This document shows, in pieces, positions 1,424-64,000 of a DNA stretch of 64,000 bases; within the stretch, counting starts at the first letter, position 1; each line of letters opens with the position of its first letter. Under the pieces are notes generated by a model. That model ran no database searches and was not told the DNA's origin. It worked only from the letters and a program-made list of their open reading frames with translations. The position numbers and the translations under genes were made by a program. Source of the DNA: a virus; IMG/VR virus record IMGVR_UViG_3300044769_000143; one strand, given 5' to 3'.

Positions 1424-1633
1424 CTAAAAGAGGCTCCCCTGACCTGCTCGCTGGAGGTCCACCGAGGTATAGTTGAGACATTTCACGCAGCGCCACTCGG
1501 CGCCATCTTTATCTATATGCACAATCACAGAATAGCATTGTCCCTTTGGGCATCTAGGTTTCTTTATTTCGGGCAAATTCCTGATCTTCAGGGAATACGG
1601 TGCGAGATAATCTATCTTTTCTACACGTCCCAC
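1424..1633 (-). CDS. Small zinc-ribbon protein
   Basis: 69-aa ORF with CPKGQC...CVKC (CxxxxC/CxxC pairs). Overlaps the primase stop, suggesting coupling. Non-ATG start, so the start is uncertain. Confidence 0.45.
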   Translation of the reverse strand: MGRVEKIDYLAPYSLKIRNLPEIKKPRCPKGQCYSVIVHIDKDGAEWRCVKCLNYTSVDLQRAGQGSLF

Positions 1634-3705
1634 AGCTTGTCACCGTCCTTATGTCCTCTACGAACATATCCACGGGCTACACCACCTGAGTCAGTTCTCA
1701 TAGTTGTGCTATGAAATTTCAAGCGTTGCATAATATCACCTATTCGCCGCGAATCCGATTTGGTTCTACGAGCTACTTCAATTCCTATGGCGTCCATCAA
1801 TGCATCACTGCTGATGTACAAACCACCTTGTCTTATATCTAAGGTCTGTGCTATTATTTCACGAATATTATCTTCCCAAGGGTCCACCTCGAAGCGTTCT
1901 TCTTGATGTTTCTCTGCTACAGACCACAAGCTTTCTTTCAAACGAATCGATTCACCCTTTTTCTCACGGACATTTGCTTCTGCCCACAACTGATCACGGA
2001 CTGTAGCAATTCCTTGAAAATCAAGTGTCGTTGTTTTCACTGGCCAGAAACGCCGAGCGCCTGTCGGGTCAGTGATGTACTGTGTATCATTCACAGTTCC
2101 TATGAAGATAAAATGCCGCGGCCGTTCAGAAGCTGTCTTGGCGTATGCTAGTCGCACAGGTCCGTCAGATTGTCGTGATAACATCGCCTTCAACTGATTG
2201 ACCTCGGCTTTGTTCCGCCCGGTCAATTCAGCAATCTCAATGATCCACTTTCCAGCGGTGTGTTCGATAATTTCCTTACCCTGCAGATCGAGACGCATTC
2301 CGTCTGAAAACCAATCCTCATTAGGACACAAGTTACGAAGTAACGTACTCTTTCCTGTTCCTTGTATGCCTTCCAGAATTACCATTTCATCGTATTTACA
2401 GCCCGGCTCACGAACGCGTCTTACGGCAGCTATCAGCATGATTCCACTAATAGCTCGCACGTAGGCATTATCCTCGACACCAGCGTAGGTAATCAACCAT
2501 TCATCTAATCGCGGGGTGCCATCCCATTCGAGGGTGTCTAGATATTCACGTACGGGATGTCGTTGGTTTTTGTAAGCGGCGTCGTACAGAACTCTTGCGT
2601 ACAGAGTTGGGGAGGGTAGGAACTTAAATTCCTTGTCAAATTGCAGATACAGATTGTTCTCAAGGTCATCGGTAAGAATCTGTTTACCTTTTCCTTGTTC
2701 AATCACGTACTTCTTTTCAGAGAATGTGTCGAATTCAAACGACAGCCTGAGCTTATCAAATCCAATTCGTATGTTTGCCACAGAATTGATAAGTGGCAGA
2801 CCACGTTTATCCGTTATCCAACTGGAAGCTTCGCCAACCCAACGGCGAAATAGCTGAATAATTTCATTTCCAAAGAACTTTCGTAGTTCAGAAATGCCTG
2901 TGTGCGGATTCCCGGCTTTATGTTTCTCGTAGGTGGAGTTAACCACCATATCAATATCAGAAGCGTCTTTGTTTCCTGTGGATCTAACGATCTCCCGGCC
3001 AATCTTGATAAGTTTATCCTTATCAATATCAGCACTAATCATGAATCCAGCCCACGCCAACCGTAGCTCATGGGTGAATTTACCACCGGCGCAATGCTTT
3101 GCAAACATCATGCCGATTGCTACAGTAGTTACGAGGTCTCTCATTTCACGAGACGTCACTTTGGCAGGGTTGGGTCCACCACCCTCTATGAATTCCAGTG
3201 GCTCTCGTCGATCACCCTTAGTCCAAATTGATGGCGGAACCATGGTTTGGAAACCTAGTGCGCCATCATTCTTCACTCCACGAATTTCGAGGAGCGTAGT
3301 ACCGTCTAGATCTGTGTATTTAGTTGTGGGAATTGGCTCATCTGTGAGGTAAAACAGATGGCTAATAGTCTTCGAGGCTCGCCCGAAGGCAAATTCTGTG
3401 GTAGGTAGGATTGATGCGGCAATCTTAATTCCCGGGCTCCAGTCAACGTCTACGTCGTGGAGATATTCGCCCGGTGCAACCTCTTGCCCGGTCAATAGAC
3501 CGACGCGGTTGCCCTCTTTGTAATCGTCGAGACTGTACGCTTTCTGTGTCCAGTTGGCTTCTTTTGGACCTTTTATATCGCCTATCTGTGGCCAAACAAC
3601 AAACTTCCAATTCCGTGATGCGTAGTCTTCGACGACCGCTTTCGCCATCCTAGATACCATCCTAGGCGACAGGCTCAAAGATTGCGTAACCTTCGGGTCT
3701 GACAC
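1621..3705 (-). CDS. Bifunctional DNA primase/polymerase-helicase (Prim-Pol N-terminus + VirE/P4-alpha-type P-loop domain)
   Basis: 694 aa. N-terminal Prim-Pol-like region (LHDVDVDW), Walker A GIQGTGKST and Walker B-like WIIEIAEL typical of VirE/D5-type phage primases. True start may be an internal Met. Visibly AT-richer than its neighbours. Confidence 0.8.
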   Translation of the reverse strand: MSDPKVTQSLSLSPRMVSRMAKAVVEDYASRNWKFVVWPQIGDIKGPKEANWTQKAYSLDDYKEGNRVGLLTGQEVAPGEYLHDVDVDWSPGIKIAASILPTTEFAFGRASKTISHLFYLTDEPIPTTKYTDLDGTTLLEIRGVKNDGALGFQTMVPPSIWTKGDRREPLEFIEGGGPNPAKVTSREMRDLVTTVAIGMMFAKHCAGGKFTHELRLAWAGFMISADIDKDKLIKIGREIVRSTGNKDASDIDMVVNSTYEKHKAGNPHTGISELRKFFGNEIIQLFRRWVGEASSWITDKRGLPLINSVANIRIGFDKLRLSFEFDTFSEKKYVIEQGKGKQILTDDLENNLYLQFDKEFKFLPSPTLYARVLYDAAYKNQRHPVREYLDTLEWDGTPRLDEWLITYAGVEDNAYVRAISGIMLIAAVRRVREPGCKYDEMVILEGIQGTGKSTLLRNLCPNEDWFSDGMRLDLQGKEIIEHTAGKWIIEIAELTGRNKAEVNQLKAMLSRQSDGPVRLAYAKTASERPRHFIFIGTVNDTQYITDPTGARRFWPVKTTTLDFQGIATVRDQLWAEANVREKKGESIRLKESLWSVAEKHQEERFEVDPWEDNIREIIAQTLDIRQGGLYISSDALMDAIGIEVARRTKSDSRRIGDIMQRLKFHSTTMRTDSGGVARGYVRRGHKDGDKLWDV

Positions 3706-3823
3706 CGAAAGCTGCGCCAGGAGGCGCAGATTGTGAAAGGAAGGATCGGCTCGAGGATGGGCCAGACGACCATCCGCCGACTCGGGGTGAAGCGTCCCTC
3801 ACCGCCGATCCAACCTAATACTC

Positions 3824-3852
3824 AGTATAGCACAGCCGGGCGGGATTGTCAA
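3824..3852 (-). promoter_or_regulatory. Class I near-consensus sigma70-type promoter for the primase operon
   Basis: Minus strand: TTGACA (3847-3852), 17-bp spacer, TGc TATACT (-10 at 3824-3829). Confidence 0.65.
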
Positions 3853-4023
3853 GGGATAGGTACCGGGTACCCGGCAAACGGCCGACCCGGTACCCGGTAC
3901 AGACGGCCGTGAGCGTATGCACGTGGCCCGCCTTGCCACGTTCGGCCGGTACCCTTACCCGGCATACGTACCCGGCCGCCTACGCGCCTGGGAGCGGCCA
4001 GGAGGCGGTTTTCCGGTTCCAGC
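3853..4023. repeat. Intergenic cluster of GGTACCCGG-type repeats and hairpins
   Basis: At least 5 copies of GTACCCGG/CCGGTAC. ACGTGGC-N7-GCCACGT hairpin. Contains a CGTATGCAC word also found at 20630, 20696 and 22363. CCGGTACCCTTACCCGG resembles 58848-58863. Confidence 0.6.
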
Positions 4024-17091: not shown

Positions 17092-17120
17092 TTGACACGG
17101 AGCCGTTTGTGTGGTATACT
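17092..17120 (+). promoter_or_regulatory. Class I near-consensus promoter on the plus strand, antisense to the HNH-like gene
   Basis: TTGACA (17092-17097), 17-bp spacer, TGg TATACT (17115-17120). Abuts the stop codon at 17121. Confidence 0.5.
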
Positions 17121-17888: not shown

Positions 17889-17933
17889 GTAACGTTCCCT
17901 CCTGTTTGTGTTGTTACGTACGTTTATTACCGC

Positions 17934-17960
17934 ATTATACCACATTTCCGCACGTGTCAA
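17934..17960 (-). promoter_or_regulatory. Class I promoter for the HNH-like/GH unit
   Basis: Minus strand TTGACA (17955-17960), 15-bp spacer, TGg TATAAT (17934-17939). The spacer is short but there is an extended -10. Confidence 0.5.
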
Positions 17961-17964
17961 CGCT

Positions 17965-18164
17965 GTAACGTAACGTGTGTCCGTAACCGCGTTACCTGCA
18001 CACTTCTACCAAGTTATACTACGCTACCTAGTAATTTCCGTATACTCAATACGTGCGTCTGTTTTGCTGTGAAAGTGTTGAAACACCTGTTACTGCGTTA
18101 CAGGCGTTACGTCGTTGCAAACAAAGCACTTACACTGTTACATTAACTGTTACAATCTGTTACA
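17965..18164. repeat. GTTAC/GTAAC pentamer cluster including three direct TGTTACA repeats
   Basis: GTAAC at 17965, 17970, 17983. GTTAC at 17991, 18089, 18097, 18106. TGTTACA at 18136, 18148, 18158 (12- and 10-bp spacing). Non-coding. Confidence 0.7.
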
Positions 18165-18203
18165 TAGAGAGTATCCCTCCTGGTAAAAGCTCTCGATCTG
18201 CGT

Positions 18204-18300
18204 TCCAATCACGATCTTTGTCCTCGGCAACGCCCTCTCGACCTCGCGGCGCGCTCCACGAACCTCCCTAACGAGGTTCACGACGGGTCCAATCACGATC
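18204..18300. repeat. Two copies of the TCCAATCACGATC(n)TCCTCGGCA repeat
   Basis: 18204-18216 and 18288-18300, each followed by yyyyTCCTCGGCAwyG. Related copies occur at 19566-19892. Confidence 0.7.
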
Positions 18301-18402
18301 CCCCTCCTCGGCATTGTCCTCGGGACTCAGCCCGCGTTGCGGGCAGCGTTCCCCGCGACGCGATCCGCGTTGCGCTCGTAGTGAGCTCGCGGTCGCGGAT
18401 GT

Positions 18403-18428
18403 AGAAAAGCCCGCCATCGCTGGCGGGC
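18403..18428 (-). terminator. Rho-independent terminator after the lipoprotein gene
   Basis: GCCCGCCA (18409-18416) / TGGCGGGC (18421-18428). On the minus strand it is followed by TTTTCTAC. Lies 8 nt past the stop at 18437. Confidence 0.65.
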
Positions 18429-18436
18429 CTCGTGAA

Positions 18437-19011: not shown

Positions 19012-19250
19012 TATCTATCTCCTTCGTGTCGGCGAGCGATTGTCGCGACTACCAGATACTTCGCGTCGTTCTTCGCTTCTACAACGATCGCTCGCGCAAT
19101 ATTTCCTGTCCGGCGGCAGAAGATCGCAATCCGTCGGTTCAACCCATAGGTCGCGAGGATTGGACTCTGCTTCTCCCACTTCCAAATCTGCAGCTCGTCC
19201 TCCGTGCAGTCTATCTGGTCCATCAGGGACAGTATCTGTCTCGGTGTCAC
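19011..19250 (-). CDS. Hypothetical protein
   Basis: 79-aa ORF with overlapping stop/start. Confidence 0.5.
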   Translation of the reverse strand: MTPRQILSLMDQIDCTEDELQIWKWEKQSPILATYGLNRRIAIFCRRTGNIARAIVVEAKNDAKYLVVATIARRHEGDR

Positions 19251-19435
19251 TGCAGCCTCATCATGGTTACGGTAGCGTCGTATCCTTCTTCACGGAAGCA
19301 GGCCGCTGCCTCCTCCGCCCTCTCCTCTGTCCAGTACGCCTTCCGGAATGCCCCTCTTCCACTCGCGTACCACACGTCCACTCGGAAGACCCGGCTCTTA
19401 TCCACTTTCCGCTCTTCCTGTCTTACCTCTTCCAT
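19247..19435 (-). CDS. Hypothetical protein
   Basis: 62-aa ORF. First gene after the cassette, with AGGAGAAATAGAATG start context. Confidence 0.5.
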   Translation of the reverse strand: MEEVRQEERKVDKSRVFRVDVWYASGRGAFRKAYWTEERAEEAAACFREEGYDATVTMMRLQ

Positions 19436-19478
19436 TCTATTTCTCCTATCTGAGGGGCGCGGCCCCGCGGCCGGCTAA

Positions 19479-19514
19479 ATATAGGATACCACAGGAGGCG
19501 GGCCGAGCGTTAGG
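19479..19514 (-). promoter_or_regulatory. Class II-type promoter cassette (variant)
   Basis: Minus strand GAGCTCCTAACGCTCGGCCCGCCTCCTGTGGTATCCTATAT, then the GGGGCCGCGCCCC hairpin, then the SD/start at 19435. Confidence 0.45.
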
Positions 19515-19565
19515 AGCTCCGCGACTATCCTCCGAGCTGCTCCCGCTCATCCTAACATCCACGGA

Positions 19566-19892
19566 TCCAATCACGATCTTCCTCGCTGGTCCCGTCCTCG
19601 TGAGCTCTACGCGGCCCCGATACGCCGGCGCCTCTTCCTTCGTCCTCCTCCCCCTCCCCCATAGACCCTCGATCCTCTTGGGTTCCAATCACGAATCCGG
19701 GCCGACTGCGGGAAGACTCATGGATGCCGGCTCCAATCACGAAACCCAGCCCGAGCGATGGCTTCAGGGACTCGCGCCGCGCGCATCGCGGCTCCAATCA
19801 CGAATCCGGGCCGAGGCACCACCATTGCTGCTTGAGTTGCGCGCAGCGCGATTCGGCAAGATTCCGCCTGAATCACGAATCCACTCACGAAC
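19566..19892. repeat. Five dispersed TCCAATCACGA(A/T)(A/C) repeats
   Basis: 19566-19578, 19684-19697, 19732-19745, 19793-19806, and degenerate 19869-19892. Copies at 19684 and 19793 share 22 identical nt (TCCAATCACGAATCCGGGCCGA). Confidence 0.7.
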
Positions 19893-20159
19893 GAGGGCCC
19901 TCGGGATGTCCTCCTGGGGAGCTCCCGGGGCGAGGCGGATCGCCTCGCTTTGCGATGCAAAGCGGATGGTTGGAGGCAAGGCGGGAGCAGGGGAGGGGCA
20001 TGTGGGGTGGCGCGGAGGGCACCAGGGATGCGCGGACATGGGGGCCCAAGACTGGGCCTCCGCTGGCGCCGGCGGACCTCGCCGCGGAGCTGCTGGGCGC
20101 CCGATCGCCCGGGACGATCCCCGCGGGATCCGCGTGGATCCGGGCCTATCTTTCGGTAG

Positions 20160-20214
20160 TGTCAACTCCTTGACACCTGTCAAGGTTTTGACACCGGGTG
20201 TCAAACATTTGACA
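20160..20214. promoter_or_regulatory. Array of six alternating TGTCAA/TTGACA half-sites (operator-like palindromes)
   Basis: Half-sites at 20160, 20170, 20178, 20188, 20199 and 20209 (8-11 bp apart). They form CCTTGACAccTGTCAAGG (20168-20185) and TTTGACACcggGTGTCAAA (20187-20205). Confidence 0.55.
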
Positions 20215-20219
20215 CGCAA

Positions 20220-20360
20220 GTGGTCTTACCACTTGCATACGCCGGAACGTTTAGTGGTCTTACCACTATACGCCGCCATGCATACGTGGTTTCAAGTGGT
20301 ATGCATACGGTCTACCGTGGTCAAACCACTGTATGCACGGTTATGCACTGGTATGCATAC
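20220..20360. repeat. GTGGT-N3-ACCAC palindromes interleaved with (T)ATGCA(T/C)AC words
   Basis: GTGGTCTTACCAC at 20220 and 20254; GTGGTCAAACCAC at 20317. At least six ATGCATAC/ATGCAC words in 20235-20360. Confidence 0.65.
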
Positions 20361-20368
20361 GTACCAGC

Positions 20369-20422
20369 CGACCACGGCGAGGCAGTCGACCACGGCGAGG
20401 CAGCCGACCACGGCGAGGCGGG
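20369..20422. repeat. Three tandem 18-bp repeats CGACCACGGCGAGGCAGy
   Basis: 20369-20386, 20387-20404 and 20405-20422 (the last copy is degenerate at its 3' end). Confidence 0.8.
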
Positions 20423-20622
20423 TACGGTCGGCCGAGCGTATACGGCCGGCTTATACGTACAGTGCTTAATCACTTTTGCTTATGGGAAAATCTCCATTTT
20501 ATTGGAGAACGACGAACGCAGGCACTGTAAGGGTAAGACAAGGGTAAACACCCCGCGTCGTTCCTAGAGGCCTTAAAACGCGTTTTAAAGGCATCGACGT
20601 GCATAGTATCGGACGACAGTAC

Positions 20623-20718
20623 GCAGAGACGTATGCACGGCGAGACGGCGAGACATAGAGACGCAGAGGACGCAGAGACATAGAGACGCAGAGACGTATG
20701 CACGGCGAGACGCAGAGA
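20623..20718. repeat. Array of about 12 contiguous nnnGAGAC octamers with a 24-bp direct repeat
   Basis: GCAGAGAC / ATAGAGAC / GGCGAGAC units. GCAGAGACGTATGCACGGCGAGAC occurs at 20623-20646 and again at 20688-20711. Confidence 0.8.
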
Positions 20719-20751
20719 AACGCCTACGCGCCGTAGGCGTAAAATAAAGTG

Positions 20752-20782
20752 TTGACAGCATACGGCCGTTTAGTGGTACCTT
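20752..20782 (+). promoter_or_regulatory. Possible rightward promoter for the 20990 block
   Basis: TTGACA (20752-20757), 19-bp spacer, GTGG TACCTT. The CCGTTTaGTGGTA segment resembles the 17092 promoter. The spacer is long and the -10 is weak. Confidence 0.25.
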
Positions 20783-20989
20783 TGTCTGGTCGACGGCGGT
20801 ACCGGGTCGGCCGGCTCTTTCAAAACTCAATACGGCGCGGCGCTAGGGACTAAACCGGCGCGCGCGCCTTGCGCCTTAGAAGCGGGTCGGCACAGCATGA
20901 CAGTCTAAGGTGTTTACGCAACGGCAGGCTAACGGCCTGCACACGTTAGCCTTGCCTCAATCACTGTGCAGATAGACAGAGGTTAGACA

Positions 20990-21577
20990 ATGGCATTCGT
21001 TGCAACTCTTCTTACGCTGGCTTACATCAAGGCCGGCGTAACGCGCATCCTTGACACTTGCGTCTCGCTCATCGGGGCAGACGGCAAGGGCGAGGCTGCA
21101 AACTATGACCGCGAACCACGTGCGTTCGTGTTGACCACGGTTGAGCCTAACGGCGAGACAACGTGGTCGGGGGACAAGTGTGGCGCGCGTGACACTGTGG
21201 TTCGTGTCTATGCCGCTGCACTGACGGACACCAAGTGGCACGTCTACATTGGTGCCAAGTGGCAAGGCGGACGGGCCGACCGTGCATGTGGCGGCGGACC
21301 TGTCGAGTGCAACTCACGCGAGGCGGCCGAGTTGCTACTTACGACAACGGTGCTAGAGCTTGCTACTGGCAAGTTCACCGGGCCGCTGTCGTCTCGCCTC
21401 CCTCGCGTGTTTCACGGTCGCAAGCTGGTCGAACGTCCAGACCAGCATGCCAAAGGTGGCAAGGCCGGCACTGTTGTTTCCAAGGTGACGGACGAGGCTA
21501 CCGCCGCCATGGTGGCGGCACTCAAAGCGGCTGAGGCGGAGAACGCGCCTAAGCCGGCCGACAAGGCGAAGGCCTAA
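20990..21577 (+). CDS. Hypothetical protein with Ala/Lys-rich C-terminal tail
   Basis: 195-aa ORF with GAGGTTAGACAATG start context. The tail AALKAAEAENAPKPADKAKA resembles histone-like basic tails. Confidence 0.55.
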   Translation: MAFVATLLTLAYIKAGVTRILDTCVSLIGADGKGEAANYDREPRAFVLTTVEPNGETTWSGDKCGARDTVVRVYAAALTDTKWHVYIGAKWQGGRADRACGGGPVECNSREAAELLLTTTVLELATGKFTGPLSSRLPRVFHGRKLVERPDQHAKGGKAGTVVSKVTDEATAAMVAALKAAEAENAPKPADKAKA

Positions 21578-22306: not shown

Positions 22307-22316
22307 GTGGTAAACA

Positions 22317-22427
22317 GTGGTTAGACTGGACATCTTACCACTGCTTACCACTTGTCGGTTGCGTATGCACAGTGGTTAGACCACTAGCCCACTGTCACCG
22401 GCCGGTGACATGTCACCCACGGGTGAC
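22317..22427. repeat. GTGGTTAGAC(CAC) / CTTACCAC words and two 16-bp GTCACC...GGTGAC palindromes
   Basis: GTGGTTAGAC at 22317; GTGGTTAGACCAC at 22372-22384; CTTACCAC twice (22334, 22344). GTCACCGGCCGGTGAC at 22394-22409; GTCACCCACGGGTGAC at 22412-22427. Confidence 0.7.
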
Positions 22428-22517
22428 ACCGCGCGGCCGGCCGGCTCCGGCGGGCCGCGGCCGCCAGCGGCGGCGGGGCGGAGCTGCCCGCGTTAGGCAT
22501 CCCATTTTAAAGAGGAT

Positions 22518-22607
22518 CGTTACACGCGCATCGCTCCAAAATTTCCCTCCGAGTATTACGCGTCCCGTTACACGAATCTCCCACCCTGGGCCGCGATTTC
22601 CGTTACA
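22518..22607. repeat. Three CGTTACA direct repeats upstream of the packaging genes
   Basis: CGTTACA at 22518, 22566 and 22601. The GTTACA core matches the TGTTACA repeats at 18136-18164. Confidence 0.55.
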
Positions 22608-22743
22608 TCTTTGTGAAATAAACCTCCTACGGAGCGTTTTAAGCGCTCCACGCCCCTAGCCCTTACCTACCTATTACCTGGGAGCGAAAGTGCCTTAAAA
22701 CGCTTCCTAAATACACGCACGCGCACGCTACGCGCACGCGCGC

Positions 22744-23211
22744 ATGTGCTATAATGGCCGTGTGCGTACCACTACCTTCGAACGTCTCCATGAACGATTC
22801 TGGCAAAAAGTAGATAAGACAGATTCTTGCTGGATTTGGACAGCTGGTAAATACACAAACGGATATGGATCTTTTGGCGTTGGTGAGAATCATTGGTATG
22901 CCCATCGTTTCTCATGGACTATTAGTAATGGTTCAATTCCAGAAGGAAAATATGTTTGTCATCACTGTGATGTTCGAGCCTGTGTAAATCCTGATCATTT
23001 ATTTCTTGGAACTGCAAAAGAAAATTATCAAGATGCCTCTAGAAAAGATAGATTATGTACAAAGAAATTTCTAACTAATGAAGAAGACTTGGAGATCTTT
23101 CAAAGTTCTTTATCAGACGAAGAACTCGCTAAAATCTATGTAGTTTCTCCTAGAGTGATTCGTAACACAAGAATACGCCTTTCTAATATTTACCCTATAT
23201 TTGGCGCTTGA
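22744..23211 (+). CDS. HNH homing endonuclease (paralogue family A) immediately upstream of the terminase genes
   Basis: CWIWTAG...GYGSF...AHRFSWTISNGSIPEGKYVCHHCDVRACVNPDHLFLGTAKEN. AT-rich island. By comparison with its paralogues the true start may be the in-frame GTG at 22762. Confidence 0.85.
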   Translation: MCYNGRVRTTTFERLHERFWQKVDKTDSCWIWTAGKYTNGYGSFGVGENHWYAHRFSWTISNGSIPEGKYVCHHCDVRACVNPDHLFLGTAKENYQDASRKDRLCTKKFLTNEEDLEIFQSSLSDEELAKIYVVSPRVIRNTRIRLSNIYPIFGA

Positions 23212-23271: not shown

Positions 23272-23658
23272 ATGCGCCCCGTTTACGACGACGACGATCT
23301 CCTCGATGTGCCGCCAGGATACATCTCTGGTCCCTCGAAAGCGGATCTCGTAGATTCTGCAGCGAAGTTTGCGGCAGAGATCCTGGAAGATCCCCAGTAC
23401 CTGGAGAAGCTGAAGGCGCGCGCCTTTGCAGGTGCCCTTCCGCCGGCAATCGAGCAGATGTTGTGGGCGTATAGATTTGGGAAGCCCATGGAGATGTCCA
23501 AGATCAAGCAGGGGCCGAGTGATTCGCAGCTGCTGGCGGACATGTCCCTCGAAGATCTGACCGCCTTGGCGAGGAAGAACGCGGAAGACGCGAGTCTCCT
23601 CCTCGAAGCGAAGATGCACAAGATGGGCATTGCTCCCATCCGCGGGCACTTGCAGTAA
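23272..23658 (+). CDS. Candidate small terminase subunit
   Basis: 128-aa helical ORF directly upstream of TerL. The assignment is positional only. Confidence 0.35.
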   Translation: MRPVYDDDDLLDVPPGYISGPSKADLVDSAAKFAAEILEDPQYLEKLKARAFAGALPPAIEQMLWAYRFGKPMEMSKIKQGPSDSQLLADMSLEDLTALARKNAEDASLLLEAKMHKMGIAPIRGHLQ

Positions 23659-23761: not shown

Positions 23762-25276
23762 GTGTCAACCATTTCCTCGAAGGACTATTTAGCTAGAACT
23801 CTCTCCCAGCAGTCGGCAATTACGGCCGAGCTGCGGCGGAGGAGATATGCCCTCGATCCGGTGCTCTGGGCGCGAGAGGTTCTCGGGGATACGCTCTGGT
23901 CCCAACAGATGCGTATCATGGAGTCTGTTCGAGACCACCGCAAGACCGCCGTCCGCTCCTGCCACGAAATCGGAAAAAGTTTTATTGCTGCCGAAGTGAT
24001 TGGATGGTTCATCGCAACGCGCAGAATTGGCGATGCGTTTGTAGTGACATCTGCGCCTACGGCGAAACAGGTGGCGGCCATCTTGTGGCGCGAAATCGGC
24101 CGCGTACACGGACGTGGCGATCTTCCTGGGCGGGTGACTGCCACGGAGTGGAAAGCCGTTCCCGTGCTGCCGGATGGTCGCCCCGGTAAAGAGGAACTAG
24201 TTGGGTTCGGCCGCAAGCCAGACGACTATGACATGACAGCCTTCCAGGGGATTCATGCTCCTGAAGTGCTTGTCGTGTTTGATGAGGCGGATGGTATGCC
24301 GCCTGAGCTCTGGGAAGCGGCCGACTCGCTGATGGCGAATGACGACTCTAAGATGTTGGTCATCGGCAACCCGGATAACCCGCAGTCACAGTTCCGCGAG
24401 GTCTGTAAGCCGGGCTCCGGGTTCAACACGATTGGAGTCAGTGCATTTGATTCGCCCAACTTCACCGGTGAACCAATGCCAGAGCGCGTCCGGAAGCAGC
24501 TTATCGGACCACTCTATGTCGAGGAGAAGAGACGAAAGTGGGCTCCTCGATGGACCTGGACAGATGACGGCTCCCGGGTCGTATGCCCCGAAGGAGTCGA
24601 TCCTCTCGACACGAATCCCTACTGGCAAAGCAAGATCCTAGGACAGTTTCCCGAACGGGCGGACGCCGACGGGCTGATTCCGGAGGTGTGGATTGCACAA
24701 GCCCGAGCCAGAAATCTTCCAGCTCACGGCCCCTATCAACTTGGGGTTGATGTCGGCGGTGGTGGCGACGCCTCCACCATCGGATTACGTAACGGCGTTC
24801 AGTTTAAAATCCTGCACGAAGATCACAACCCAGACACGATGGCAACAACCGGACGGGTCGTGGACTACCTCGCCAAGACAAATAGCGACTGTGCCAAGGT
24901 AGACGTGATCGGTATCGGGCGGGGCGTGGTGGATAGAGGCCTCGAACTGGAACTGCCGTTCATCGGGATTAACGTTGGTGAAAGACCGTCAGAGCCGGAA
25001 CGGTTTGCGAACCTTCGGGCGGAATACTACTGGAAGCTCCGCGAACGGTTTGAGTCGGGCCAAATCGTCATGGAAGAAGACGATGAAGACACCGCGGCCG
25101 AACTGGTGGAGCTGAAGTACAAACGGCTCAGCAATGGAAAGATAGAAATTGAAAGCAAGCAGCAGATGAAGAATCGCGGCGTGCCGAGCCCCAATCGGGC
25201 CGAGGCCATGATGCTGGCGTTCGCCGAGCCGAAAAAGGTGGTTGGCGGAGTGCTTGCTGGAGTGTGCACATGGTAA
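23762..25276 (+). CDS. terL: Terminase large subunit
   Basis: 504 aa. Walker A-like SCHEIGKSF, Walker B VVFDEADGM, and a C-terminal nuclease-like region. Located before the portal. Confidence 0.8.
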   Translation: MSTISSKDYLARTLSQQSAITAELRRRRYALDPVLWAREVLGDTLWSQQMRIMESVRDHRKTAVRSCHEIGKSFIAAEVIGWFIATRRIGDAFVVTSAPTAKQVAAILWREIGRVHGRGDLPGRVTATEWKAVPVLPDGRPGKEELVGFGRKPDDYDMTAFQGIHAPEVLVVFDEADGMPPELWEAADSLMANDDSKMLVIGNPDNPQSQFREVCKPGSGFNTIGVSAFDSPNFTGEPMPERVRKQLIGPLYVEEKRRKWAPRWTWTDDGSRVVCPEGVDPLDTNPYWQSKILGQFPERADADGLIPEVWIAQARARNLPAHGPYQLGVDVGGGGDASTIGLRNGVQFKILHEDHNPDTMATTGRVVDYLAKTNSDCAKVDVIGIGRGVVDRGLELELPFIGINVGERPSEPERFANLRAEYYWKLRERFESGQIVMEEDDEDTAAELVELKYKRLSNGKIEIESKQQMKNRGVPSPNRAEAMMLAFAEPKKVVGGVLAGVCTW

Positions 25277-26661
25277 GGGATTCCTCCGGGGATAGCATCT
25301 CGATGGGCGCGCTGCGCGTGCTTGGCACCGTGCTGAACCGAATGGGGCTGCGCGGGCTGGGAAAAACGTTCGACGGGATGCGGGACATGACTCAGGCCCT
25401 CGGCTACAAGAAAGATCTTGGTAGCGAGGACTACGCGGCGCGTTACGCGCGCAACGGAGTGAGTAATCGGCTTGTGAACATCTTCCCCAAGGCCACCTGG
25501 GCAGCCGGTTGTGAAGTTATAGAGATAGAAGACCCGTTCAAAATCACTCCGTTTGAACAAGAAATGATCGATTTGGATGAAAAAGTCCACTTCTGGAACG
25601 CATTTCTCCGTGCGGACGTGCTTGCGGGACTTGATCGGTACAGCGTGATCGTGATTGGTGCGCCCGGTGCCATGGATGCTCCCCTACCCGATGGGGCGGG
25701 GAGTATTGATGGAATCGGGTATCTTATGCCGTACCGGGAGTCGCATGCCCGGATTCAAATCACCGTGAATGATCCCAAAAATCCGCGCTTTGGACAGGCG
25801 GAGATGTACATGATCACGCACGTGCAGGATGGAACAATTGGAACAGCCGCAAACTCCGTAGAACGTCGGGTTCACTGGAGCCGCGTGCTGCACATTGTCC
25901 ACGAACGGCTGGATAGTAACCTGTATGGTCCTCCGGACTTAGAAAACGTCTGGAATTACCTCGATGACCTGGACAAAGTCGTCGGCGGTGGGTCAGAAGC
26001 CTTCTGGAAGACCGTATATCAGGGCATGCAGCTGGACATTGATCCGGAAATGGACCTCACGCCAGAGGCCAAAGAGGACATGTCCAGACAGATTGACGAA
26101 TTTGAAGCGAACCTCCGTCGAGTCTTCAGGACCCGCGGAGTAAAAGCGACGACGCTGGGTGCGTCGGCCACGGATTTCGGGCCTCAGGCGGAGGCGATTA
26201 TAAATCTGATTTGCGCTACCAAGGGAATCCCAAAACGCATTTTTATGGGTTCCGAGCGCGGCGAACTCGCATCGGCCCAGGACAAAGCCTCCTGGGATGA
26301 CGAAATTGACGATCGGCGGGAACAGTTTGCGTGGCCGGCGGTCGTGAAGCCGTTCGTGGATCGCCTTATAGAGAAAAATTACCTCAGCAAGCCTGCTAAC
26401 CCATTTTTCGTACGTTGGCCAGAGCGCAACAAGATGACCGTGCCAGAAAAGGCTGTGGTCGCGCAGCGTCTTGCGTCTCTCAACAAGAATATGGGTGTGG
26501 CGGTTGTCGGGCCGGACGACATTCGCGACAAGATTCTTGGATGGGACAAACTGAAGGAAAACGTTCCGGTGCCGATGGATCAGGCACCGGGTCCGCCGCC
26601 CGTAAAACGTCCCAACAAGACTCAACGCAGTGAAGGTGATGTCACTGAGGTTCGGTCATGA
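25264..26661 (+). CDS. Portal protein (DUF1073-like)
   Basis: 465 aa. Position between TerL and the protease/scaffold. N-terminal YAARYARNGVSNRLVNIFPKATW resembles DUF1073-type portals. Confidence 0.7.
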   Translation: MHMVRDSSGDSISMGALRVLGTVLNRMGLRGLGKTFDGMRDMTQALGYKKDLGSEDYAARYARNGVSNRLVNIFPKATWAAGCEVIEIEDPFKITPFEQEMIDLDEKVHFWNAFLRADVLAGLDRYSVIVIGAPGAMDAPLPDGAGSIDGIGYLMPYRESHARIQITVNDPKNPRFGQAEMYMITHVQDGTIGTAANSVERRVHWSRVLHIVHERLDSNLYGPPDLENVWNYLDDLDKVVGGGSEAFWKTVYQGMQLDIDPEMDLTPEAKEDMSRQIDEFEANLRRVFRTRGVKATTLGASATDFGPQAEAIINLICATKGIPKRIFMGSERGELASAQDKASWDDEIDDRREQFAWPAVVKPFVDRLIEKNYLSKPANPFFVRWPERNKMTVPEKAVVAQRLASLNKNMGVAVVGPDDIRDKILGWDKLKENVPVPMDQAPGPPPVKRPNKTQRSEGDVTEVRS

Positions 26662-28455: not shown

Positions 28456-29712
28456 ATGAATGCAGTCGTAGAGACTGGCCGCGAGTTCTGGGGCGCTTCC
28501 GACGGCAAGTGGGCCGGCGAGCAGATGCTCAAGGCTCTCGAAGCTGGTCGCCCATTGGCAGCCAAGGAGCTTCGCGTCGCTTCTACTCTCCGCAAGGATG
28601 AGTGGAAGGTGTTCGACGAGGCTCTCGTCGAGGAAGTTCACTTGCGTCTCCGTGGTGTCGCCGATCTGTACGGGGCGGGCCTCACGAAGAGCATCAGTGG
28701 CGGACTCGGAAAGACGGTCTACGAGTACGAGAAGATGTCCGACATGACGCCTGCCATCGTGTCGATGGACGGCAACGTGCGTTCGGACAACGATCGCGTG
28801 GACTTCAGCCGGGCTGGCATTCCGCTGCCCATCACCCACAAGGACTTCAACCTCAACCTGCGGACGCTTCAGGCCTCCCGCAGCGGCGGTGAAGGCCTCG
28901 ATACCGTTCAACTTCGTGTCTGCGGGCGTCTCATTGCTGAGAAGCTCGAAGACATGCTGTTCAACGGTTCTACCAAGATCTACCAGGGCCTTCCGATCTA
29001 CGGGTACACGACGTTCCCGCAGCGGAACAAGCTCGCCTTCGGTACGGGCGGCGCGTGGTCCTCGGGTAGCAAGACCGGTGAGCAGAAGCTCAACGACGTC
29101 CTTGCGATGATCGCTGCCGCCAACGCCGATCGTATGTACGGACCGTTTGTCCTGTACATCCCGGCGACGGACGCAGTGGCCCTCAACCAGGACTTCAAGA
29201 CAGCTTCCGACAAGTCGGTTCTGTCCCGCCTCCTGGAGATTCCGGAACTCTCCTCGATCCGCACGAGCGACGTTCTCGCTGCGGACAACCTGCTTCTCGT
29301 CCAAATGACGGCGGACAACGTCCAGCTGCTCGTTGGAGAGCCACTGCAGAACATTCAGTGGGACATCAACGGCGGGTTCACCATCGCGTTCAAGAGCTTC
29401 ACGATCCAGGTACCGCTGATTCGTGCTGACGCCGCCGGCCGTTCCGGTATCGTTCACATGAACGTCACCGGCACGTTGCTTCGTGACTCTGGCGATGAGA
29501 TTCGCGCAGCGGTTTCGGACCGCAACCTGAACGAGCCCACGATCGAGGTGGACAAGGCTGGTGTGGTCCGGGCGATTATCGCCAACGACGACACTCTGCC
29601 GGAGAAGCCGGATCAGGGTCTGCCGGGTGACGGGCGTGAGCGTCGTCCGCGGGTGGACAACGAACTTCCGGAGACTCCGGAGCCGAAGAAGACTGGCGAC
29701 GCGAAGAAGTAG
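28456..29712 (+). CDS. Major capsid protein (HK97 fold, encapsulin/DUF2184-like) with disordered C-terminal extension
   Basis: 418 aa. Encapsulin-like N-terminal region (LRKDEWKVFDEALVEE...). Canonical position. Last about 40 aa are Pro/Glu/Lys-rich. Confidence 0.7.
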   Translation: MNAVVETGREFWGASDGKWAGEQMLKALEAGRPLAAKELRVASTLRKDEWKVFDEALVEEVHLRLRGVADLYGAGLTKSISGGLGKTVYEYEKMSDMTPAIVSMDGNVRSDNDRVDFSRAGIPLPITHKDFNLNLRTLQASRSGGEGLDTVQLRVCGRLIAEKLEDMLFNGSTKIYQGLPIYGYTTFPQRNKLAFGTGGAWSSGSKTGEQKLNDVLAMIAAANADRMYGPFVLYIPATDAVALNQDFKTASDKSVLSRLLEIPELSSIRTSDVLAADNLLLVQMTADNVQLLVGEPLQNIQWDINGGFTIAFKSFTIQVPLIRADAAGRSGIVHMNVTGTLLRDSGDEIRAAVSDRNLNEPTIEVDKAGVVRAIIANDDTLPEKPDQGLPGDGRERRPRVDNELPETPEPKKTGDAKK

Positions 29713-37019: not shown

Positions 37020-40000
37020 ATGGGTACTATTGTCCTAGGAACACTCCAGTTTGTCAATCAGGCTTCGCCACAGATTATGGCTGTGGCGAACTCGTTGGAT
37101 ACACTTGGAGCTGCAGCTCGTAGTCTTGGGATGCAGTTGATTGTCTTAGGAGGTACTCTTTACCGTTCTCTAACTGTTCCTTTGATGGGACTTGTTAAAA
37201 TCGGGATAGATTTTGAACATCAGTTTGCCAATGTTGTCAAGACAGTTCAGGGCTTTGGCTATGTAGATGCTTTTGGTAAACTGAATATTCAGGCGAAGGC
37301 ATTTCAGGATCAACTTCGTGAGATGGCAACAAGATTGCCATTTACGCACAAGCAGCTCACAGAGATTGCAGCATTTGGCGGACAGTTCGGCGTACATAAG
37401 CGGGATCTAGCAGATTTTACCGAAACAGTTGCCAAACTTGGTACTACGATTGATGGCATCGAAGTTGAGACTGCTGCAAAAGCTCTGGCCCAGATCAAGA
37501 ACATTACAGGTGATGCTTCCAAAGGCTACGGAAAACTAGCGGCAACTCTCGTCGATCTTGGCAACAAGGGTATCTCTACCGAGGGTACTATCCTCGAAAT
37601 TACCCGACGTATGTCAGGTGCTGGTGCAGTTGCTAAGATGTCTTCGTCTCAGATGTTTGGTTGGTCAGCTGCAGTTGCAAATCTTGGTCATCGTTCAGAG
37701 CTTGGCGGTAATGCGATTGCAAATACCATCCTGAAAGTTTCGCGTTCTGTTGCAGAGGGTGGAGATAAACTTGCTGCACTTGCCAGAATTTCAGGAAAAT
37801 CTGCAAAACAGTTTGCAGAAGATTGGGGTAAAGATGCATCAGCTGCATTGAATCAGTTGCTTACCAGAATTTCCACGATGTCGAAGACTAAAATCCCTTC
37901 GGCAATTTCAGAATTGTTCGGTACATCCGTTCGTCAGAATCAGGTGTTGTTGACTCTTGTCAACACGATGGATGATTTGAACAAGACTCTTGGAGATTCA
38001 GAAACTGCCTATAAAAAAGGCACAGCAATGGAGGACGAGTTTGCGAAGAAGGCAATAACCCTCCAGAATCAGTTAGCAGTTTTGCAGAATCGTGTACGTG
38101 ATGTAGCAATTACGATAGCACAGCCTTTCATGGATGCGCTTCGTGGTGTTATTATTTGGTTGGACCCATTCTTTAAGCATATCGAAAGTCTTGCGAAAAG
38201 TTTTTCTGAATTAGATAAAAGTGCACAACGGATTATTGTAACATTTGCAGTACTTGGCGGAGTTGGAATTCCAACTCTAATAATTGCTGTTGGTGGACTT
38301 TTGTGGGTTTTCGGTTCACTTGTTGGAATTCTTGCTCAGGTTGGCATAGCAATTGCAACTATTGGAGGTTCAGCAGCTACAGCTTCTCTTCTAGGCTGGC
38401 TTACTGCATCTTCTGCTGCGATTGGTGCTTTTGTAGTGAGTGCTTCGACTCTTGTAGGTGTGGTTTTGTTGGTTATAGGAACATTGTACGCTCTTACAAA
38501 AGCTAGAGACGCTGCTTTTGATAGTTGGGTTGCTCCACAAATTATACAGATGGCTCAGGATTTTGGAGTTCTTTCTAAAGAAGTAAAGACGTTTGCATCT
38601 GCTGAAGAAGAAGCGGCATATAAATCAGAACAATTGGGTTTGGCGTATTATGGTCTTCGGCAGAAAGTTATTGATTTTGGTGTGGAGCAGGGTATCATTG
38701 GTGATAAAACTCAGGACATGATCACCAATTGGGATTCGTTGTATTCCAAGTTTGGTAGTGTTTCAAAAATCCTAGATATACTTAGAAGGCAATTTATTGA
38801 CTTCTCCAAGGATGTAGCTCCTCCTGACTGGTTAATGATGATATTGACTGGAGGAGCTGGGGCATGGACTCTCAATGCTATAATGAATGCAAATACGAGA
38901 CGTAACTATGTTCCACCTGCTGGAGCTAATATTGCTCCAAAGGGCTTCAGACTTCCGGCTGAAGATGAAAAAGAACTTGGCGCTTTAATTCCATTTCCAG
39001 AAACAATAGGCCGTCTTCCAAGAATGGGTTTTGGAGGAATGGCCTATAGTGATGTATTTAGCAAGGTCAATAAGGACTTAGCTCTAACAAATCTGTTGAT
39101 GTCTAAGAATCAGGTTATTCAGAGTGACCTGAATGCCATGTTGTTGGAGGAAACTCCATATGAAAGAATGGCAAAAGATGCAAAAGCTGCTTCTGAAGCA
39201 GCTAGAAAAGAGGCTGAAGCTTTAAAGAAGTTGATGGAAAATTTCGAGTTCTATCAGGATATGCACAAAATGATTGGACTTGAAGATTACATGAAGTTCA
39301 ATCGAATGACCATTGCTCTTCAGGATCTTACTTCAAAAGGAATTAAGCCGGGCGCAGCATTCTTTAGAGAATACGGCGATACTGCTGTTAAAGCGGCTGA
39401 TTATATCACAGCAACTGGTGGAACAATTTCTAAAGAAATGAAAGGCATTATTGCTGGATCTGAAGAAAATATAAAGAAACTGAATGAAATATTTTTGGAG
39501 ATGGCAGATCCGAAAAAGTTTAGCACAAAACTTCAGGAATTCGGACTTAGCATATATGAATTCAAACAGGAATTGGATGATCTTCAGTTCGAGCAGTGGG
39601 TTGAACGTCAGACTAACGCAACAGTTCAAGCAATTGCAAAGTGGGAACATGGCTTAAAGGATCTGAAAGAAAAGGTAGATATTAAGCCATCAAATGTTTC
39701 AATTGAATTGTGGGAAAGATACGTAGCTACATTAAATCAGATAGAAGTTGGAAAACTTGCGCGTATTGTCCGCGAGTCGGACGAACTGCGTAAGGTGTAT
39801 GTTCTCTTCTCTAAGCTTCCTGGTGGCGGGTTTGGAATCAAAGCTATTGAAGATTTCTTGAACTTGATGGGTGGTGGTAAGGCGAAAGGTGGGGAAGATG
39901 ATCCTACAAAGAAAATACAGACTGGTATAGAAAAAGTTCACAAACTTGTTAAAGATACTGCTCAGGCATTTAGTAAGCTCAAGAGTATTATGGGAGATAC

Positions 40001-51561: not shown

Positions 51562-52017
51562 ATGGCAACTCGTATTCAGCTTCGGCGTGGCCTGAAATCG
51601 GCCCTTCCCTCGACTCTTCTGCTGGCTGGCGAGCCGCTCTTTTCAACGGATCGCGGCACGTTGCACGTTGCAACCGATGCAACGACCAAGATCCCGCTTG
51701 TCCCCTGCATCGATGATCTCGCCACACTCGCCGCGATCACCGGTGCGGCTGATTTTCTGATTGTCCACGATGCAGATGGCACGGGACAAAAAGAGAAGAA
51801 GATTCTCTTTGACAACTTCAAGGCTGCGCTGAACATTCCTGTTGGTTCAGCCGACGAGAAAGTTGCCGTAGTTTCTGGTGGCACAGCCGGGTATATCTGG
51901 GGAACTGACGGCACGAATGGTGTCCTTCGCATGGGTGCCACCCTTGAATGGACCAAGGACGCCGGCAACGCATTCGTCACTCTCAACGTTGGTATCGTTG
52001 ACGGAGGCACGTTCTAA
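51562..52017 (+). CDS. Tail fibre protein with Mtd_N/hyaluronidase-type N-terminal motif
   Basis: IQLRRGLKSALPSTLLLAGEPLFSTDRGTLHVATD matches the IQLRRG...L.GEP..TD.G.L..G.G motif. Confidence 0.5.
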   Translation: MATRIQLRRGLKSALPSTLLLAGEPLFSTDRGTLHVATDATTKIPLVPCIDDLATLAAITGAADFLIVHDADGTGQKEKKILFDNFKAALNIPVGSADEKVAVVSGGTAGYIWGTDGTNGVLRMGATLEWTKDAGNAFVTLNVGIVDGGTF

Positions 52018-63227: not shown

Positions 63228-64000
63228 TCATTTCATCCTTCGCAGGAGCCACTCGCGGCCCGCAATAGTCCAGTCACACACCTGTGCATCGTAGAGAACG
63301 TCAAACGCTTCCTTTGGGAAACCTTGACGATACATTTGGTGTGCCCACATCATTCTGTGGCACATCGCGCCCCACTCGCTATCACAAGTGAAGAACTGCC
63401 GACTCGGCGGCCGATTCACATACGCTTCACTATCCGCACACGCAAGCACGTTGTGAATCTGCACGTCTACATCTTCCGGCATACGGATCGTGCCGGTTTG
63501 ATACCCACGCCATTTCTCATCCACGATCGGCAGACATTTGTTGTACTGCTCTTCGTAGGCGTGGTAATTCACCGAAATCTGTGTGTACTTACCAACCTGA
63601 AAGCCGGTCTTCACCGCCACGTATTCGAGGAGGAATCCGAAGTGAACAGCGTTCGCTCCGTACGTTCCCCAAATTATGTCGTTAGACCTACAGAACACAG
63701 TCATGTTCAGCTTGGACCACACCGGGTCAATCTGGAATGTGGCTACCAGATTGCACGGAACAGCCTTTCCCTTCCGGCCCAGGTCTACCTTGGGATCCCA
63801 CATCTGCAGAACACACTGTCGGTCGATTGGATCAGCCTTCAGCTGCTGAATGATCTGCGCGATCTGGTTCCGGCCGAAGTGTTCTCTCCAGCGGTACCCG
63901 TAGGCATCGTGGAGAATTTGTCCATCGTCGGAATAATTCAGCATGTTCTTGGCGTAGCGGGCGGGACCTCCCACGTCCCGCCTGCCGTCCAACATCCACA
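63228..64000 (-). CDS. Thymidylate synthase (ThyA)-family enzyme, divergent, 5' end probably beyond the window
   Basis: Aligns to ThyA at YGYRWR, DPIDRQCVLQMW, AVPCNLVATFQ (catalytic Cys), CRSNDIIWG..GANAV and YHAY. About 55 N-terminal residues expected from ThyA are missing, and the frame is open to the edge. Has a C-terminal extension of about 90 aa. Confidence 0.65.
   Translation of the reverse strand, partial: WMLDGRRDVGGPARYAKNMLNYSDDGQILHDAYGYRWREHFGRNQIAQIIQQLKADPIDRQCVLQMWDPKVDLGRKGKAVPCNLVATFQIDPVWSKLNMTVFCRSNDIIWGTYGANAVHFGFLLEYVAVKTGFQVGKYTQISVNYHAYEEQYNKCLPIVDEKWRGYQTGTIRMPEDVDVQIHNVLACADSEAYVNRPPSRQFFTCDSEWGAMCHRMMWAHQMYRQGFPKEAFDVLYDAQVCDWTIAGREWLLRRMK

Follow-up and report, generated by a model that had tools for sequence, protein, structure and literature searches.

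A repeat-dense non-coding region at the divergence of two phage gene arms as a candidate modular early control region

We analysed a stretch of viral DNA of 64,000 nucleotides (IMG/VR virus record IMGVR_UViG_3300044769_000143; hereafter, the window), which comprises most of one phage genome, and concentrated on the interval from which its leftward and rightward genes diverge. This intergenic interval (19436-20989, 1554 bp; hereafter, the region) is the largest non-coding gap of the phage genome. With about even confidence, we consider it to be a conserved modular early control region that would combine divergent promoters, operator-like sites, an array derived from a host repeat and a replication origin. 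In the arrangement that we propose, a promoter (PL, ~19483-19493) would fire leftward, and a block at 20752-20782, followed by a structured leader of ~200 nt, would fire rightward. The interior would provide docking sites for DNA-binding proteins, in the form of a host-repeat direct array and three palindromic site families, and the operator-like families would be shared with other intergenic regions of the same phage. Finally, an origin at 20365-20718 would replicate the circular genome in both directions, co-directionally with transcription of both arms.

Extent, repeat content and non-coding status

A first-pass annotation, made from the letters of the sequence, had placed the region at 19515-20989. 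The right edge stands, but the left edge lies further out, because the gap begins at 19436, directly after the gene at 19247-19435. Repeat density within the window is highest here, where a fraction of 0.54 of the bases lies in 9-mers that are repeated within 400 bp, compared to a window mean of 0.106. All nine repeat elements that had been picked out are present, at about the places where they had been put, and the site families occur far above chance. From left to right, the modules and their main elements are as follows.

19436-19545, minus strand: putative leftward early promoter block and leader
19562-19899, plus strand: six host-repeat-like units, GGnTCC(A/G)(A/C)TCACGAATC, the last two overlapping as TCACGAATCCACTCACGAACGAG
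19567, 19685, 19733 and 19794, plus strand: exact copies of CCAATCACGA, with variants TGAATCACGA at 19869 and CCACTCACGA at 19881, plus strand
19643-19660, plus strand: homopyrimidine tract TCCTCCTCCCCCTCCCCC, with GCCGGCGCCTC just before it
19946-19964: palindrome CGCTTTGC-GAT-GCAAAGCG, of the CTTTGC-N3-GCAAAG family
19965-20158: G+C-rich spacer domain, lineage-specific
20159-20215: three operator-like palindromes, (G)TGTCAA-N4-TTGACA(C), at 20160-20175, 20178-20193 and 20199-20214
20219-20362: AGTGGT-N3-ACCACT palindromes at 20219, 20253 and 20316, interleaved with GTATGCA(C/T) words
20365-20422, plus strand: left tandem array, 3.1 copies of the 18-bp unit CAGCCGACCACGGCGAGG (three 18-mers at 20365-20419; TRF score 103)
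20426-20622: conserved central block, with GC palindromes, an AT-rich patch, two copies of AAGGGTAA (20529 and 20540), the palindrome CCTTAAAACGCGTTTTAAAGG (20571-20591) and a conserved 40-mer
20623-20718, plus strand: right tandem array of the octamers GAGACGCA/GAGACGGC/GAGACATA, punctuated by GTATGCAC
20722-20782, plus strand: candidate rightward promoter, with the hairpin CGCCTACG-cgc-CGTAGGCG (20722-20740), TTGACA (20752) and TAGTGGT
20785-20989, plus strand: structured 5' leader of the rightward operon, recognized from its fold relative to shuffled sequences and from relatives

The absence of credible coding potential, as first claimed, is supported by comparison with relatives. When the window is aligned with one of these (L044), the mismatches in the region are distributed over the three phases as 177/174/177, and the region accounts for 347 gap columns. 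The corresponding values for the flanking genes are 43/33/99 and 8/5/22, which show the expected third-position excess of changes; the region is without such an excess, and thus without codon periodicity. Its long open reading frames (ORFs) vary between lineages in place, strand, frame and length and are not conserved, and their earlier rejection (for example, of the 373-aa ORF at 19348-20469) was right.

Conservation of the modules among relatives

Relatives that have the gap were found with homologues of both flanking proteins. Five further diverged metagenome lineages (L031, L044, L055, L096 and L032/L101) keep a gap of 1.2-1.8 kb with identical module order (1452 bp in L031, 1795 bp in L044, 1169 bp in L055 and ~1.45 kb in L096; L032 and L101 are partial). 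The comparison with related genomes that had been proposed as a check therefore finds the region retained. DNA identities between the window and L096 are distributed unevenly over the modules:

Flanking genes: 72-77%
Direct-repeat module: 97%
G+C-rich domain: 100%
TGTCAA palindromes: 93%
Left tandem array: 44% (replaced)
Central block: 93%
Right tandem array: 74%
Hairpin and rightward promoter block: 94%

Thus, most modules are better conserved than the flanking genes. The same blocks stand out relative to the more distant L044, in which the units of both arrays differ. From this pattern, the modules are either under constraint or moving as cassettes, and the arrays hold their place but not their sequence. 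Among the elements first listed, the G-rich stretch and the TCTCCA/TGGAGA hairpin are lineage-specific and are not kept in relatives. No nucleotide match to the region was obtained in 50,697 GenBank phage records (BLAST, near and distant modes), or in scans of IMG/VR with a conserved 23-mer and 19-mer.

Promoter blocks and leaders at the two edges

The leftward block contains an extended -10 element, TGTGGTATCCT (19483-19493, minus strand), a GC hairpin, and the ribosome-binding site (RBS) AGGAG before the ATG at 19435. The sequence CTCC-TGTG(G/C)TATCCTATA(T/C)TTAGCC is kept in five lineages, ~45 nt ahead of the start codon, and the GC hairpin of the leader is kept in relatives via differing sequences, with the RBS next to it. 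Three consensus sigma70-type promoters of the form TTGACA-N17/18-TGTG(C/G)TATAnT occur in the window, at 3829 (minus strand), 17115 (plus strand) and 23232 (plus strand), and the TGTG(G/C)TAT motif of the leftward block is common to them. The block is therefore a putative extended -10 early promoter (PL) of the same type. No phage RNA polymerase was seen among the gene calls read around the circular map, which, together with the three consensus promoters, indicates dependence on a sigma70-type host polymerase. One of the three (17092-17120; TTGACA-N17-TGTGGTATACT, a perfect plus-strand promoter) lies in a gap between two leftward genes and points against them.

At the right edge, L031, L032 and L044 retain the elements TTGAC(A/G/T) and TA(G/T)T(G/T)G, and L055 has the consensus TGTGCTATTCT in this place. 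We consider 20752-20782 to be a promoter-like block that probably serves the rightward operon. The leader that follows consists of a hairpin, a single-stranded stretch GCUCUUUCAAAAC, a second hairpin, further hairpins, and AGATAGA-GAGG before the ATG at 20990. It is clearly structured: the fold of 20785-20992 has a z-score of -3.1, and none of 200 shuffled sequences folded equally well. Six relatives share the succession of a hairpin, single-stranded GCUCUUU(C/G)AAAAC and a second hairpin with four compensated pairs; the hairpin lies immediately 5' of CUCUUU in four relatives.

The single-stranded stretch matches the rrn boxA UGCUCUUUA at seven of nine bases, and is the one such site in the window. 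In the nut-type antitermination layout of lambda and rrn operons, boxA is followed by a spacer and the boxB hairpin (PMC2724277). The phage leader resembles this layout in that a boxA-like stretch lies between two conserved hairpins, the second with compensated pairs, and differs from it in that the boxA match is partial, no N-like protein was identified, and the window has a single site. By this resemblance, a nut-like function is conceivable for the stretch, as is, with equal likelihood, a role in an attenuator formed with the first hairpin.

Operator-like palindromes and the spacer domain

Three families of palindromes occupy the interior. The first, CTTTGC-N3-5-(G)CAAAG, is present in one or two copies in L031, L044 and L096. 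The second, TGTCAA-N4-TTGACA, has three copies (0.00 expected) with centre-to-centre spacings of 18 and 21 bp. It had been described as a phased TTGACA/TGTCAA array; the array is real, and consists of three palindromes with a fixed 4-nt spacer rather than of loosely phased words. At the same place, L031 and L055 carry GTGTCGG-N4-CCGACAC instead, and L044 has a different inverted repeat. By analogy, such replacement at a fixed place would be a specificity swap as in phage immunity regions. In L014, a distant relative, GTGTCGG likewise makes up half of the iteron.

The third family, GTGGT-N3-ACCAC, has copies at 20220, 20254 and 20317 and another at 22372, outside the region (four found, 0.04 expected). 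The GTATGCAY words number 13 in the window (2.6 expected), eight of them inside the region. In their AGTGGT-N3-ACCACT and GTATGCA(C/T) forms, the two families occur in every relative. They also appear in other intergenic regions of the phage, both at 22363-22386 and the GTATGCAC word at 3915 as well; proteins that bind these sites would therefore act at several control regions. The palindromes lie 540-700 bp from either promoter block, and no helix-turn-helix (HTH), repressor or DNA-binding protein was detectable near the region. The multi-operator content suggested by the first-pass annotation gains support from conservation, from the promoter blocks and leaders at the edges, and from the site families shared with two other intergenic regions.

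The G-rich stretch has a GC skew of +0.43 at ~19936-20035 and a G-quadruplex (G4)-type motif at 19983-20019, the latter inside the G+C-rich domain that separates the first two families. L055 lacks this domain, and in L044 and L031 only part of it can be aligned. A G-quadruplex role was rejected, since the motif is present but not conserved in relatives.

Two other intergenic patches share elements with the region. The interval 22307-22743, just upstream of the HNH gene and TerS, is a second repeat-dense non-coding region. It has in common with the main region GTGGT..ACCAC half-sites and a palindrome, GTATGCAC and GCCTTAAAACGC. Its additional elements are a GC-rich tandem repeat, two palindromes of the form TGTCAC-N6-GTGACA and CGTTACA in three copies. 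Two promoter-like elements, TGTGCTATAAT and TGTGCTATAGT, flank the HNH gene. The interval 3706-4023, upstream of the primase-helicase gene, holds five units of the GGTACCCGG type, GTATGCAC, and a minus-strand consensus promoter, TTGACA-N17-TGTGCTATACT; it is a candidate alternative origin or operator site.

The direct-repeat module and a host heptad element

The leftmost repeats, originally noted at 19566-19892, correspond to CCAATCACGA, which at up to one mismatch occurs 20 times in the window (5.5 +/- 2.4 expected). Each relative has five to seven copies of the unit in a single orientation, with the core conserved, the spacers diverged and the last two copies always overlapping. The window (18205 and 18289), L044, L048 and L055 have one or two extra copies beyond the point where the leftward early operon terminates. 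In the window, this position is a third non-coding patch (17889-18436) behind the leftward early operon, with a minus-strand intrinsic terminator at ~18400-18425, the two CCAATCACGA units and a run of GTTAC / CTGTTACA repeats; a 54-aa ORF called here by some pipelines is doubtful. Within the direct-repeat module, the homopyrimidine tract is the sole pyrimidine run of at least 18 nt in the 64-kb window, and a (CCTCCC)n tract after CGCCGGCGCCTC was found in L031, L044, L055 and L096. A sigma54-like GGCAC-N6-TTGC at 19817-19835 is not conserved in L031 and was treated as chance.

The unit GGnTCCAATCACGAATCC, in its five to seven same-orientation copies, matches one arm of an interspersed heptad element of Xanthomonadales. 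A scan with CCAATCACGAATCCNGGCC, using one genome per bacterial species, gave 35 loci, 19-20 of them in Xanthomonadales (Luteimonas, Pseudoxanthomonas, Lysobacter, Xanthomonas, Aquimonas, Dokdonella and Rhodanobacter). The host element (loci L062-L095) is intergenic and consists of tandem heptads, (CGAATCC/CGAATCA/CCAATCA)n, ending in CGGCC. Its arrays are frequently paired in inverted orientation, at distances of 6-150 bp, and in many cases a start codon follows within 3-13 nt. When the host repeat loci were searched against Rfam, only unrelated tRNAs were matched and no family covered the heptad element, and a literature search found no paper that quotes the heptad sequence. The element is apparently an undescribed repeat resembling repetitive extragenic palindromic (REP) sequences or miniature inverted-repeat transposable elements (MITEs). 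In an earlier interpretation, CGAATCCGGGCCGAGGCACCA resembled the 3' end of a tRNA; this was rejected, as neither ARAGORN nor Rfam finds a tRNA and the true source is the host heptad repeat.

Compared with repeats of the REP/BIME (bacterial interspersed mosaic element) type, and the Xanthomonadales heptad arrays in particular, the likeness is that CCAATCA-CGAATCC-(C/G)GGCC of the phage is identical to the terminal heptads in those 19-20 genomes. The differences are that host copies are usually longer and often form inverted pairs able to make hairpins, whereas the phage has single arms only, in one orientation and 40-140 bp apart. Judged by sequence identity, then, the phage unit is one arm of a host interspersed repeat. 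The host clade can be predicted from this, and binding of the phage units by a host factor is suggested. A more specific proposal, which we put forward as doubtful, is that the phage copied the repeat arm (five to seven copies upstream of the first early promoter and one or two behind the terminator) to capture or titrate the host protein by which such repeats are recognized. The captured factor, for example a topoisomerase or nucleoid protein, would be loaded onto the incoming genome beside the origin and the early promoters, and the control element would have been built through mimicry of host REP-like DNA.

The central module as a candidate origin

The central block, flanked by the two tandem arrays, is 77% identical to that of L044 and is recognizable in L032 and L101. 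Its AT-rich patch (20450-20510; 66% A+T) is the least stable duplex of the region and falls in the 99th percentile of the window for segments of 40-60 bp. Tandem arrays stand at matching places in all relatives, with periods of 8-20 bp and 3-10 copies. For the left array, the units are GCTGGGTCGA (5.5 copies) in L096, CCGAGCCG (4 copies) in L044 and GCCCGGTGCTGGAGTG (6.5 copies) in L032. The right array has 9.5 copies of 8 bp at 20642-20718 and eight GAGAC words, all on the plus strand; related but differing units are found in L044 (GGAGACGGACAG), L096 (GTGGAGACGGAC), and L031 and L032 (GTGGAG(C/T)).

A 21-codon ORF (MGKSPFYWRTT...) lies in the AT-rich block at 20482-20547, and its first 10-11 codons are conserved in L044 and L032. 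As a gene, this micro-ORF (15-27 codons) was rejected: it has no RBS and its ends are variable, and it is probably a by-product of conservation at the DNA level.

The position of the module agrees with the strand asymmetry of the genome, in that the two arms diverge where the cumulative GC skew is lowest (~20 kb) and converge where it is highest (~57-58 kb). An analogous arrangement is seen in L014 (3390-4420), where 18 copies of GTGTCGG-N4-ACGACTGA in 520 bp, an AT-rich block and two TAGTGGT words are found; immediately downstream of the iterons and AT-rich block comes the Prim-Pol/VapE primase-helicase gene, an orthologue with 42% identity. A Blastn-short comparison of the L014 iteron region with the window gave chance-level words only. 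In L014, L009, L007/8 and L005, the primase-helicase gene is 1.5-5.5 kb upstream of TerL and on the TerL strand, and in L014 and L008, for which the upstream DNA was read, it is the first gene to the right of the divergent junction. In the clade of the window, the gene has relocated to 1621-3705, and the origin could have moved along with it.

In the PLE non-coding region there are four types of repeat, and the segment with repeats 3 and 4 is an iteron origin (PMC7145576). The module described here is like such origins in having two sets of short direct repeats around an AT-rich stretch, with lineage-specific repeat sequences, and in lying inside a larger non-coding region with other repeat families; moreover, the phage encodes a Prim-Pol/VapE primase-helicase. 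It is unlike them in that the phage has its initiator gene elsewhere, the left and right arrays are of different sequence, close relatives have another left array, and there are no DnaA boxes. Other iteron-type origins, with a primase-helicase or Rep initiator encoded alongside, are SaPI ori, phage P4 ori/crr, lambda ori and those of iteron plasmids. The lactococcal phage c2 offers a further parallel, since it has a non-coding region between divergent gene blocks that holds promoters and an origin. However, that region is much shorter (~0.6 kb) and has no comparable repeat load, and c2 is a smaller (22-kb) cos phage of a Gram-positive host.

An origin was among the roles first suggested for the region, and it is the best available reading for the array/AT-rich/array module. 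From anatomy, position and the analogy with L014, we consider it plausible, at somewhat less than even confidence, that the central module (20365-20718) is a bidirectional replication origin.

Several observations weigh against a control region with an origin of this kind. The left array is replaced between close relatives amid DNA that is 83-93% identical, which is awkward for an initiator-specific site; cassette exchange, or structural repeats that evolve fast, would explain it just as well. The AT-rich patch spans only ~60 bp and is not the least stable DNA of the window, and any origin signal in the GC skew is completely confounded with the direction of transcription. A distance of 16 kb separates the region from the primase-helicase gene, which has its own repeat patch (3706-4023) as an alternative origin site, and a cognate initiator gene is adjacent only in L014. 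DnaA boxes (TTATNCACA, up to one mismatch) occur once in the region, with 0.56 expected; GTATGCAC matches the box at only seven of nine positions; and the region has no site for the IHF consensus WATCARNNNNTTR. With respect to the promoters and operators, the -35/-10 spacing of the rightward block is poor and a promoter-consensus search gave no match there, and neither flanking protein shows a DNA-binding fold.

Alternative interpretations

The most serious alternative is that the region controls transcription only, with all of the repeats acting as operators or decoys, for regulators of both phage and host, that time the switch from leftward-early to rightward expression, and the origin located elsewhere, for example at 3706-4023. 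In its favour are the recurrence of GTGGT-N3-ACCAC at 22307-22743, and of GTATGCAC both there and by the consensus promoter of 3706-4023, the swapping of palindrome specificity at a fixed place (TGTCAA, GTGTCGG or CTTACACGGT), which resembles immunity-region operators, and the five-unit GGTACCCGG patch directly upstream of the primase-helicase gene. We nevertheless consider this interpretation unlikely, although it deserves to be kept in mind: no repressor-like or HTH protein is detectable beside the region, 3-10 head-to-tail units of 8-20 bp around an AT-rich block are untypical of operators, and location at the skew minimum fits an origin.

Much less probable is a DNA-end or entry element, either a packaging site with termini or a T5-like injection stop that would pause entry after the first early genes. 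In T5, the untranslated repeat regions of iss belong to the left terminal repeat. They adjoin pre-early genes that run leftward, their conservation exceeds that of the ORFs around them, and another repeat region is split by an HNH gene (bioRxiv 10.1101/866236). The anatomy here is similar: more than 1 kb of non-coding DNA with ordered direct and inverted repeats, palindromes and a 9-copy short tandem array, better conserved than its neighbours and next to small leftward early genes. There are also further repeat regions nearby, one of which (22307-22743) abuts the HNH gene and TerS where the T5 counterpart is interrupted by its HNH gene, and one 56-kb Logan contig terminates at 19563. However, the region is internal, at the divergence of two arms on a circular map, with no long terminal repeat or fixed end evident, and it lacks the eight DnaA boxes of T5, which are paired within large inverted repeats. 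It has no similarity to GenBank phage records, and no T5 homology was seen in the proteins examined. The region is spanned with 100% identity by nine other contigs that come from separate samples or assemblies, and a near-complete contig of 74,022 bp breaks at window position 9123 instead. A distance of 2.3 kb separates the region from TerS, which has another repeat region immediately before it. Where contigs of relatives end inside the region, they do so at scattered points, a pattern expected of assembly breaks in repeats. The role in termini or packaging that had been suggested is thus not supported, with at least nine independent assemblies and the near-complete 74-kb contig reading through.

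Slightly less probable again is that the region encodes one or more non-coding RNAs, such as a small RNA from the central block, or a protein-sponge RNA in which CCAAUCACGAAUCC or the complementary sequence is repeated. All of the repeat units are in one orientation, the highly conserved central block ends in a hairpin followed by T-rich sequence (AAAACGCGTTTTAAAGG), and the host heptad arrays, often 3-13 nt before start codons, are transcribed DNA. On the other hand, Rfam at E<=1 gives no match in the region and there is no tRNA or tmRNA; the repeat module, G-rich domain and central block, folded on both strands, do no better than shuffled sequences (z-scores of -0.4 to -1.7); no promoter is evident for the candidate RNAs; and the cores alone are conserved, not their pairing partners. 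The Rfam and structure scans that had been proposed therefore give no fold signal except in the rightward 5' leader, and the RNA-gene candidate is not supported. Finally, protein coding, whether by the 373-aa ORF, which some pipelines call, or by small acidic minus-strand proteins (~80 aa) in which all six repeat copies lie in an open frame reading ...RDW, has almost no likelihood and the RDW frames were rejected, since the same frames are open for just 11-186 codons in relatives with neither starts nor ends conserved, the copy spacings (118, 48, 61 and 87 bp) do not share one frame, GC2 (G+C at second codon positions) is 0.57-0.65 compared to ~0.4 for real genes, and the substitutions lack codon periodicity and come with many indels.

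Genome setting

The map closes into a circle of ~74,507 bp by way of contigs that overlap the window at each of its ends. The rightward arm of this circle spans 20990-59284; the leftward arm starts at 19435 and continues through the closure to 59281. The principal genes are as follows.

1621-3705, leftward: Prim-Pol/VapE (D5-like) primase-helicase
19247-19435, minus strand: first leftward gene
20990-21577, plus strand: first rightward gene
22744-23211: HNH gene
23272-23658: TerS, 2.3 kb downstream of the region
23762-25276, rightward: terminase large subunit (TerL)
25264-26661, rightward: portal
28456-29712, rightward: capsid-like gene
37020-41963, rightward: tape measure
Leftward arm: UvrD helicase, ligase, SNF2 helicase, exonuclease and thymidylate-synthase-like gene

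The source is probably a virulent siphophage of an uncultured soil clade that depends on host RNA polymerase, with a Xanthomonadales host probable. Pfam annotation of the gene calls that were read for the circle shows no integrase, and the closest cultured phages are just 26-41% identical in portal or terminase. Ten proteins flanking the region gave no match to Pfam or PHROGs, even at lenient E-values. AlphaFold models of the 195-aa and 62-aa proteins directly next to it (pLDDT 72 and 83, respectively) have no significant fold match in the PDB. The 62-aa protein (19247-19435) is highly conserved, with 29 invariant residues and a beta-beta-alpha-beta topology. It matches no structure significantly; below significance, it weakly resembles T7 Gp2 and T4 Dmd, which are small phage host-takeover proteins.

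Three observations concern the rest of the genome. At 63228-63995 and beyond (L036 5992-7829), the thymidylate-synthase-like gene adjoins an HMUDK_hel (hydroxymethyl-dUMP kinase-like) gene, and an oxidoreductase and glycosyltransferases are encoded elsewhere; this combination suggests that the phage DNA carries hypermodified thymidine. Contigs from several assemblies share an end point at ~55447-55451, within tail-fibre-like genes downstream of an Mtd_N-like ORF (51562-52017), which may mark a hypervariable receptor-binding region. Genes are called differently among L021-L030 even though these contigs are at least 99.99% identical, and an apparent presence/absence polymorphism of the HNH gene among them was accordingly rejected as a difference between gene callers.

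Implications

If the central module is the origin, the clade of this uncultured phage would have a defined replicon, composed of the origin and the Prim-Pol/VapE primase-helicase, with both transcription arms running away from the origin, and such a replicon would be useful for annotating metagenomic phages without cultured relatives. The fast turnover of the arrays within near-identical non-coding DNA makes this a tractable case of iteron evolution. The unusual part of the finding is the host-repeat mimicry. The exact match to a Xanthomonadales element provides a host prediction that is independent of CRISPR spacers and tRNAs, and it points to an uncharacterised host repeat-binding factor that the phage apparently exploits.

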